Positions 3,142 through 3,840 of a DNA stretch of 64,000 nucleotides are shown piece after piece. Position 1 is the first letter of the stretch, and each line of letters opens with the position of its first letter. The position numbers and the translations under genes are program-made. The notes under the pieces were generated by a model. That model saw only the letters and a list, made by a program, of their open reading frames with translations, made no database searches and was not told the DNA's origin. Source of the DNA: a virus. The stretch covers positions 1 through 64,000 of the IMG/VR virus record IMGVR_UViG_3300031555_003603, one strand, 5' to 3'.

Positions 3142-3840
3142 ATGCCTGGAAAAAGAATTAAATGGACCGAAGATAAAATTGATTTTATTATTGAAAAATA
3201 TACCAATTAGGAAATGAATACCTATGAACTGGGTAAGCACTTTGGATGTTCAAATGACACAATTTGTAGACGTTTAAAAGAACGAGGTATTCAACCACGT
3301 AAATTTCATGAAGATTTAAGTGGACAAACAATTGGTAAATTAACCGTAATTCAAAAATCAGAAAAATCCGGTCGACGTTTATACTGGGATTGCCGATGCA
3401 GTTGCGGCAAAGAAACTACCGTAAAAGGAGACCATCTTCGACAAAGAAACCAATTATCTTGTGGATGTCTTTCTTCTAAAGGGGAAGAAGAAATCGCACA
3501 AATATTATAGAATAGCGGTATTCAATTTATAACTCAATATAAATTTACTGATTTTGTATCAGAATATAATAATATACCTTATCGTTTTGATTTTGCTATT
3601 TTTGAAAATCAAAAACTTATGTATCTAATAGAATTTGATGGTGAATATCATTTTCATTATTAGTCTTCCTCAAAATGGAATACAGAAGAACATTTTTTAC
3701 ATAGACAAGAATTAGATATTAAAAAAAATGAATACTGTAAAATGCACAATATTCCACTAATACGCATTCCATACACAATACGCGATAATATTACAATAAA
3801 TGATTTAAAAATAGAAACATCTACATATTTAATTTAGTAA
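3142..3840 (+). CDS. freestanding homing-endonuclease-like protein (N-terminal HTH, C-x-C...SCGC zinc ribbon, C-terminal Vsr/PD-(D/E)xK-like FDFAIF..IEFDGEYH module); 2 in-frame TAG (3508, 3661) read as Gln
   Basis: ATG 3142 with AAAGGAG RBS; continuous frame through both TAGs to TAG-TAA at 3835-3840; paralog of 49014..49736 where TAG positions align with Gln (ILQN vs ILQE, TQYKF vs T*YSF). Confidence 0.6.

Follow-up and report, generated by a model that had tools for sequence, protein, structure and literature searches.

Candidate freestanding homing endonuclease genes at three sites in a phage fragment that reads TAG as glutamine

Four nuclease-like genes, here called A (3142..3840), B (49014..49736), C (33923..34798) and D (26012..27097), were studied in positions 1 to 64,000 of the IMG/VR virus record IMGVR_UViG_3300031555_003603; this whole 64,000-nucleotide stretch is referred to below as the window. 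We consider it likely that A, B and C each encode a functional homing endonuclease and stand free, outside any intron, in a phage that uses TAG as a glutamine codon, and that D is a domesticated or otherwise resident gene. Each of the first three lies at one precise site edging a conserved gene, namely after codon 4 of a Pyr_excise gene (A), between a small open reading frame (ORF) and dnaG (C), and between the nrdD stop and the nrdG start (B). Among related phages each is present or absent at its own site, which is not the case for D. An earlier reading made from the DNA letters alone (the sequence-only reading) had placed all four in a family of homing endonucleases; that assignment stands for A, B and C, given their site-specific presence and absence and a co-conversion footprint at C, but not for D. 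In the mechanism we propose, the enzyme would cut the empty allele of a co-infecting relative near the insertion site, and repair would then copy the gene and some flanking sequence from the occupied genome.

The window appears to belong to a large phage genome, with genes on the plus strand up to ~52.9 kb and on the minus strand beyond; A to D and the features described with them are all on the plus strand. No close GenBank relative was found when 50 kb of the window was compared by megablast with 50,697 phage records, and synteny was therefore drawn from IMG/VR, ENA and Logan contigs (cited by L numbers). When TAG is read through, all 81 predicted genes stop at TAA or TGA. NrdG has a single TAG, at position 151, where 52 of 55 distinct relatives carry Gln; two TAGs of gene D align with Gln in 8–9 of 11 relatives, and position 189 of gene B, the near-invariant Gln of a DGEQH motif, is Q in 11 homologs and TAG in seven. 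Three long genes are open only with TAG as sense: an endolysin-like gene with seven TAGs (15904..17646) and a pair of large genes in the tail region that contain 11 and 19 (56603..58801 and 60583..63870, minus strand). As judged from these alignments and reading frames, the fragment uses TAG as Gln (genetic code 15), so genes A, B, C and D must be read in the same way. The endolysin-like and tail-region genes are unreadable in the standard code, and a standard annotation would shatter all three.

With TAG read through, A (232 aa, four TAGs), B (240 aa, four), C (291 aa, two) and D (361 aa, five) are intact and contain no in-frame TAA, TGA or frameshift. The TAGs of A, B and C could instead be ordinary stops that inactivated old endonuclease genes, leaving all three dead. 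Translation table 11 does break each gene into pieces (within A the sole listed ORF is 3214..3510), a TAG apparently closes nrdD, and no tRNA gene, suppressor tRNA included, was found within the 64-kb window. Set against this are the TAGs at conserved Gln positions of essential genes and of a nuclease motif, the tail and endolysin genes that are open only with TAG as sense, and the complete lack of TAA, TGA or frameshift lesions in A, B and C. TAGs of orthologs also fall at differing Gln positions, at codons 23, 123, 174 and 232 in A and 7, 51, 62 and 174 in its L143 ortholog, swapping with CAA or CAG. Moreover, the catalytic residues are invariant, and nonsynonymous to synonymous rate ratios (dN/dS; Nei–Gojobori, closest orthologs) are 0.10–0.18 for A (0.10 vs L143), 0.06 for B and 0.08 for C, alongside 0.07 for dnaB and 0.15 for dnaG, all of them rough since dS was saturated (at least 1) in every comparison. 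These ratios rule out neutral decay of A, B and C and indicate purifying selection, and we regard the dead-gene explanation as highly improbable.

As the sequence-only reading had supposed, A and B are paralogous, aligning over 180 residues with 45% identity (E 2e-43), and a phmmer search of every TAG-as-Gln six-frame piece of the window gave no further paralogs of A to D. Gene A encodes an N-terminal three-helix helix-turn-helix (HTH) region, found in A only, followed by a cysteine-rich ribbon module (CxCxCG...SCGC; in full W-x-C-x-C-x-C-G ... S-C-G-C) and a Vsr-like nuclease domain, and gene B encodes two ribbon modules and the nuclease domain. Because the A module matches B twice, the second time in the N-terminal copy at 35% identity (E 1e-13), the zinc ribbon is duplicated in B, again in line with that reading. 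It had also named GIY-YIG and DUF559/Vsr as profiles to search for; GIY-YIG was recovered in C and D, while A and B gave in Pfam just weak similarity to DUF2726 and MTES_1575, below the cut-offs, and no match to NUMOD. An A-family profile built from 18 sequences did not match 3r3p (I-Bth0305I) or Vsr among all PDB sequences at E up to 10. Since the sequence profile matched no solved structure, a fold search was needed; made with a structure model of P0001, a homolog 86% identical to A, it assigned a Vsr-type nuclease fold to the C-terminal domain of the A family.

The Vsr-like tail that had been proposed for A and B agrees with the modeled fold. D150, E164, D166, H170, D192, K195 and the ribbon cysteines do not vary among 31–32 A/B-family homologs, and the order D...ExD...H...D fits both the EDxHD active site, a set of E, D, H and D residues described for I-Bth0305I (PMC3239194), and, in an order comparison, Vsr D51/F62/H64/H69/D97. 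About 2159 homologs of the A family were found. Distant A/B relatives (<45% identity) occur in 277 GenBank phage records, labeled “intron encoded nuclease,” “HNH endonuclease” or “hypothetical protein,” and PHROGs labels A, B and C as homing or intron-encoded endonucleases. Many contigs with 1920-like gene neighborhoods (L100–L121) carry two or three A/B-family genes per 15 kb, on either strand and at varying positions, some of which appear to have three tandem ribbon modules. In this group of phages, the A/B family has apparently undergone a large expansion.

Gene C had been read as an I-TevI-like GIY-YIG endonuclease, which profile searches corroborate: it matches Pfam PF01541 GIY-YIG (2.8e-8; 34.4 bits against a cut-off of 22.6) and NCBIfam TIGR01453, a model of group I intron endonucleases (68.4 bits against 56.05). 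Residues 100–291 align with the homing endonucleases of PHROG 7168 and 314 and, less strongly, show a weak alignment with a family of HTH-type regulators; in this C-terminal region Pfam identified neither NUMOD nor any other named DNA-binding domain.

Gene A is preceded by a gene with an MVP_shoulder domain (1920..2966), its intrinsic terminator (2980..3003; a 10-bp stem with seven GC pairs, then a T-run), and a sigma-70-type extended -10 promoter (3005..3033; TTGATT-17-TATAAT with a TG extension, 10 of 12 consensus matches). A strict search for the promoter motif returned no copy besides this one, which drives an 18-codon stub ORF (3059..3115), gene A and the Pyr_excise gene. The stub begins ATG CGT CTT TGG (MRLW) and encodes MRLWPFLDKPLSHNFIYK followed by a stop. 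Downstream of A lies the Pyr_excise/TIGR02328 gene (3845..4264; PF03013 7.8e-25; TIGR02328 173 bits against a cut-off of 121), whose product is DNA-glycosylase-like. In the window this gene lacks an ATG and reads TTG TTT ATC ATT AGA ATC TGG CAT, with ATT at 3854 in place of the original Met. Its TTG start at 3845 lies 4 nt past the TAA stop of A, and this proximity suggests that its translation is coupled to that of A.

Sixteen Pyr_excise homologs free of a homing endonuclease gene (HEG) were available from IMG/VR (L145–L160), none with an A/B-family gene nearby, and all 16 start with ATG/GTG AGA/CGT YTN TGG, that is MRLW (GTG in two), followed by His in 14; the 5' region of one of them, L156, reads ...GGAGCTATTGTTATGCGTCTTTGGCATGAAGAT. 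On this evidence the 18-codon ORF is the start that the resident Pyr_excise gene originally had, now stranded. A chance ORF was considered for this leader and rejected, since it shares MRLW with all 16 HEG-free starts and a comparable leader recurs in all the other occupied alleles. The promoter and leader noted in the sequence-only reading are therefore present, and its suggestion of a displaced 5' end was right in that the leader is the MRLW start of a resident gene; the gene itself is not displaced but intact, with a rebuilt start. The resident promoter, Shine–Dalgarno sequence and MRLW codons stay upstream of the A insert as the stub, and the 3' end of the insert supplies a new start and a copy of the codons (ATT AGA ATC TGG).

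The same arrangement recurs elsewhere. A-lineage genes (57–83% identity) lie directly upstream of Pyr_excise homologs (33–72%) in all eight other contexts (L143/L144, L169/L170, L171/L172, L173, L174, L175, L176), where the outer neighbors of the two-gene unit differ from one context to the next. In L143/L144 the block from ~2996 to 4240 retains 77% nucleotide identity despite different outer neighbors. Remnants 5' of the A-lineage genes (L143, L169, L171, L173–L176) read MRLWTF, MKLWLF or MRLWLILIRP, each before a stop, or MRLWHKF..., (L)RLWTF..., (K)RFW... or MIW.... The left boundary of the A element would fall after the TGG codon, in which case the first codons of the stub are recipient sequence and their synonymous variation is explained. 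The downstream MRLW copy has ATT for ATG in seven of eight occupied alleles and Ile for Leu in six of eight (window included), changes that may protect occupied alleles from cleavage. The Pyr_excise gene 3' of an A-lineage gene is often uncalled in public gene calls (L143 8705..9103 and L171 3705..4121), likely because its ATG became ATT and the true start is a TTG or GTG overlapping the nuclease stop.

Gene C interrupts the junction between a dnaB-like replicative helicase gene (32072..33601; 70–89% identity to relatives, with PF03796 on the orthologs), which is followed by a small ORF of 73 aa (33604..33825), and a dnaG-like primase gene (34791..35894). In relatives that lack an HEG here, the small ORF runs at its 3' end into the dnaG start codon. 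Homology of the window to its closest relative, L098, stops at 33830, 19 nt into the ancestral dnaG. These 19 nt (33812..33830; TTGATAAACTTTGATAAAA) are identical to L098 6001-6019 and were retained as a 5' stub because they also encode the end of the small ORF. A new dnaG ATG overlaps the stop codon of C (ATGATTAATTATGATAAG), so that the 19-nt duplication leaves both overlapping genes whole. At the left end of the C insert lies a hairpin, ttgacctgga...tccaggtcaa, followed by a T-run (33832..33867), which gives spurious microRNA-like Rfam matches.

All 19 IMG/VR loci covering this junction (L081–L099; dnaG relatives at 56–86% identity) are without C, and the same site holds C homologs in L177 (79%), which shares both stub and hairpin, and in L178/L179 (52%). 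Ancestry changes across the insert: dnaB, the small ORF and most of dnaG are nearer the C-free L098, whereas the first ~120–180 nt of dnaG are nearer the C-bearing L177. Informative sites matching L177 and L098 number 63 and 145 in the 930 nt upstream, 29 and 7 in the first 120 nt of dnaG, and 70 and 129 in the rest of dnaG (Fisher p = 6e-7 against the first 120 nt). This pattern is as expected of recombination and suggests that the ~120–180-nt 5' tract of dnaG is a co-conversion tract brought by C. In L085, L089, L096 and L099, dnaB, dnaG and recJ are split, at positions that recur, by inserts, several of which carry GIY-YIG genes.

The stubs could alternatively be first exons, with A and C carried by self-splicing introns inserted in the Pyr_excise gene after codon 4 and in dnaG after codon 6. 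Joining the stub ATG CGT CTT TGG to the downstream CAT CAA would indeed recreate a canonical MRLWHQ start, and dnaB, dnaG, recJ and nrdD of relatives are split by inserts with GIY-YIG genes. The non-coding sequence is too short for an intron core, however, amounting to only ~26 nt (A) or ~92 nt (C) on the 5' side and none on the 3' side, and the base before the putative 5' splice site of A is G, not U. In addition, the downstream copies (ATT AGA ATC TGG at A; ATG ATT AAT TAT GAT AAG at C) are in frame, preceded by a start codon or Shine–Dalgarno sequence, and vary synonymously between orthologs, which argues that they are translated. Rfam gave no intron match in the window at the gathering threshold, and relaxing E to 1 for the surroundings of A and C added none, a negative of low power because the same search found no group I intron in six relatives' loci with split genes. 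Taking these points together, we give introns very little credence and retain the interpretation of A and C as freestanding genes.

Gene B lies between nrdD, for the anaerobic ribonucleotide reductase (46721..49033), and nrdG, for its activating enzyme (49733..50242), whose ATG overlaps the TGA of B. A TAG in nrdD (49010..49012) falls approximately where nrdD of relatives ends, 1 nt before the ATG of B; with TAG read through, translation would end at the next TGA, seven codons on (49031..49033). It is possible that this TAG stops translation early in infection and is read through late. The B ATG, one base after the nrdD terminus, uses the GGAGG of the nrdD His-Gly-Gly codons as its ribosome-binding site. 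The same GGAGG serves nrdG in empty alleles, and a GAGGA inside the last codons of B is the nrdG Shine–Dalgarno sequence.

Across 79 loci containing both the nrdD end and the nrdG start, nrdD and nrdG abut in 50, L043 and L009 being of this type, are separated by a 211-nt gap in 10, and enclose a GIY-YIG gene in five, an A/B-family gene in two and other inserts in 12; since many of the loci are near-duplicates, these numbers do not represent independent cases. The two A/B-family genes are an 83% ortholog of B (L011) and a distant member (L080). In L008, L014, L017, L042, L052–L054 and L072 the gap holds an ORF of ~215–235 aa with a PPYH(T/P)(N/S)C(Q/R)C motif and an acidic tail; these ORFs were considered as endonucleases and set aside, not being recognizable as such. 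The nrdD gene itself is split near residues 331, 434 and 606 in L006, L011, L015, L061, L063, L067, L070–L072, L074 and L076. The split dnaB, dnaG, recJ and nrdD genes of relatives may represent divergent introns, inteins or genes in pieces.

The sequence-only reading had placed the nuclease genes between replication or nucleotide-metabolism genes, a description that fits B (NrdD, NrdG) and C (DnaB, DnaG) but not A, which lies between the MVP_shoulder gene and the Pyr_excise gene. Comparison of synteny with relatives gave empty sites for A, B and C and none for D.

D homologs (50–84% identity) are syntenic in L161–L168, which were retrieved with D itself as query, in the order ligase, g25180 small ORF, MarR-like gene, D, ..., g29004. 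D is also found at the matching position 5' of the g29004 block in five dnaG loci (L082, L083, L086, L088, L091). It thus occupies the same syntenic position in 13 of 13 relatives' loci covering the site, with a divergence close to that of the neighboring ligase. Presence at an identical locus in all relatives was the observation that the sequence-only reading had named as speaking against recent mobility, and the mobility it had proposed for D is not upheld; on this synteny D is a conserved core gene. The description of D as a transmembrane, coiled-coil GIY-YIG protein was confirmed for its hydrophobic N-terminal segment and C-terminal GIY-YIG domain (Pfam 2.2e-9), while the middle ~200 residues look coiled-coil-like by eye and match coiled-coil families weakly, below threshold. 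D is probably a membrane-anchored GIY-YIG protein. Its catalytic domain resembles intron endonucleases (NCBIfam), and it may be a domesticated one; a GIY-YIG domain is by itself no evidence of mobility.

Genes A, B and C might likewise be resident accessory nucleases or regulators, inherited vertically and repeatedly lost without any homing. D provides a precedent for a fixed GIY-YIG gene in this clade, the A and Pyr_excise module is conserved as a block, and C and its flanks show similar divergence between the window and L177. Repeated loss would nevertheless have to restore exact empty junctions, such as that of L098, where the small ORF overlaps the dnaG start without a scar. The dnaG 5' tract changes ancestry exactly at the insert, the nrdD–nrdG gap is occupied by nucleases of unrelated families from phage to phage, and the A lineage tracks one target gene over unrelated genomic backgrounds. 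We judge purely resident genes an improbable account of A, B and C, and homing remains our preferred interpretation.

Several observations weigh against homing by functional enzymes. Homing is deduced from gene distribution and a single recombination footprint. The co-conversion test was confined to C, relatives being too divergent at A and B. The closest dnaG relatives (L098, L081, L097) do not cover the region around A, and scans with the 1920 and 504 proteins yielded only relatives at 50–79% identity with rearranged neighborhoods. At C, the similar divergence of gene and flanks means that vertical descent plus loss could explain part of the pattern. HEG-positive examples came from ENA and Logan look-ups and HEG-negative ones from IMG/VR pattern scans, that is, from different collections. 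To these must be added points given above, namely the lack of a suppressor tRNA gene, the saturated dS values, the low power of the intron search, and the failure of the A-family profile to match I-Bth0305I or Vsr.

The nuclease genes had been described as TAG-rich, and they are: TAG/(TAG+CAA+CAG) is 0.29 in A, 0.50 in B, 0.33 in C and 0.22 in D, against 0–0.07 in dnaB, dnaG, polIII, ligase and nrdD. The endolysin and tail genes reach 0.32–0.42, and the bias reflects a window-wide recoding concentrated in annotated lysis and tail genes and is not special to A to D. We hypothesize that in-frame TAGs probably delay nuclease synthesis until late amber suppression, as in the TAG-rich lysis and tail genes. 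TAG-richness could also be a passive by-product: in a recoded genome, genes with weak expression, weak selection and little GC would let CAG drift to TAG by C-to-T change. Consistent with this, the TAG-rich genes are GC-poor (0.29–0.36), and those without any TAG at 504, 1920, 12250 and 54420 have high GC and favor CAG. On the other hand, the TAG share is high in the endolysin and tail genes yet near zero in replication genes of equally low GC such as dnaB (0.34 GC) and in the 38061 gene (0.30 GC), with no TAG in either. In TGA-recoded phages, Borges et al. reported preferential recoding of an intron endonuclease, for which they too suggested a delay to late infection (bioRxiv 10.1101/2021.08.26.457843). 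A passive origin is accordingly possible but somewhat doubtful in our view.

The A and B proteins share a modeled fold and, going by residue order, probably an active-site pattern with the Vsr-like “EDxHD” endonucleases I-Bth0305I and phage Hef (Taylor et al. 2011, PMC3239194; Dassa et al. 2009, PMC2677866). They differ in using Cys-rich ribbons (one in A, two in B) and, in A, an HTH instead of NUMOD repeats, and they fail the sequence-profile test against 3r3p. We therefore file them as a sister group of I-Bth0305I-type enzymes, not as demonstrated members. The A/B family appears to comprise Vsr-like enzymes with Cys-ribbon DNA-binding modules and, in uncultivated phages of the gut and rumen type, to behave as homing endonucleases with specific sites. 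This large family is poorly annotated, being often called “HNH endonuclease” in PHROGs and GenBank and having no dedicated Pfam model.

Gene C is of the standard I-TevI/Seg type and shares with I-TevI and the Seg enzymes an N-terminal GIY-YIG domain (TIGR01453) and a long C-terminal region matching PHROG homing endonucleases. In T4-like phages, flanking sequence is co-converted during Seg-mediated marker exclusion. Like the Seg genes, C is intergenic between replication genes, sporadic and accompanied by a co-converted flank, but it differs from I-TevI and Seg in its site (small ORF and dnaG), in the 19-nt duplication resolving an overlap, and in its sense TAG codons. T-even phages carry freestanding endonuclease genes in their nrd clusters, one of them mobE, for an HNH enzyme, between nrdA and nrdB. 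B is similarly wedged between two ribonucleotide-reductase cistrons without disrupting them, but here the pair is the anaerobic nrdD and nrdG and the enzyme is Vsr-like, not HNH. The TGA-recoded “Agate” phages carry an intron endonuclease among early genes with reassigned stops, a bias resembling that of TAG here (bioRxiv 10.1101/2021.08.26.457843); the window differs in its TAG-to-Gln code, its freestanding genes, and the presence of three genes from two families in one fragment.

Freestanding endonuclease genes between phage genes, co-conversion, and families competing for one site are established themes. Less familiar are the placement of A-lineage genes close to the start codon of their target, the duplication that resolves a gene overlap at C, and an amber bias common to two endonuclease families. 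We tentatively raise the idea, which we think more doubtful than not, that the A lineage exemplifies a distinct way, involving neither intron nor intein, in which homing endonuclease genes can persist within a coding sequence: takeover of the promoter and ribosome-binding site, a four-codon leader, a replacement N-terminus coupled to the nuclease stop, and amber gating. Such “start-codon capture plus code-gated expression” would be common to unrelated nuclease families in recoded gut and rumen phages. Comparison of empty and occupied alleles defines three candidate target sites, at the Pyr_excise start, the nrdD–nrdG junction, and the junction of the small ORF and dnaG, which could yield new sequence-specific nucleases. 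The junctions also illustrate how host genes stay expressed when an insert enters at their boundary: a stub is left, a start is rebuilt, or the insert donates a ribosome-binding site. The TAG bias contributes three freestanding cases to the idea that recoded stop codons set the timing of dangerous genes.

Upstream of A, the 504..1850 gene encodes a 448-aa product with no Pfam match and no record in an exact-protein look-up, 65–79% conserved across many large phage contigs. The product of its neighbor at 1920..2966 has a major-vault-protein “shoulder” domain (PF11978, E 2.7e-19) and, after it, a long helical stretch rich in Ala, Glu and Gln. The TAG-free, GC-rich and CAG-preferring composition of these two genes suggests high expression, and such a vault- or SPFH-like gene pair is unusual in a phage. 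A third TAG-free gene (12250..13773; 507 aa, GC 0.48) encodes an N-terminal membrane segment and a long Ala/Glu/Lys-rich region; PHROGs gave no match to its product, which looks flotillin- or Band_7-like by eye. Band_7 genes lie just 3' of the Pyr_excise gene in L173 and L175.

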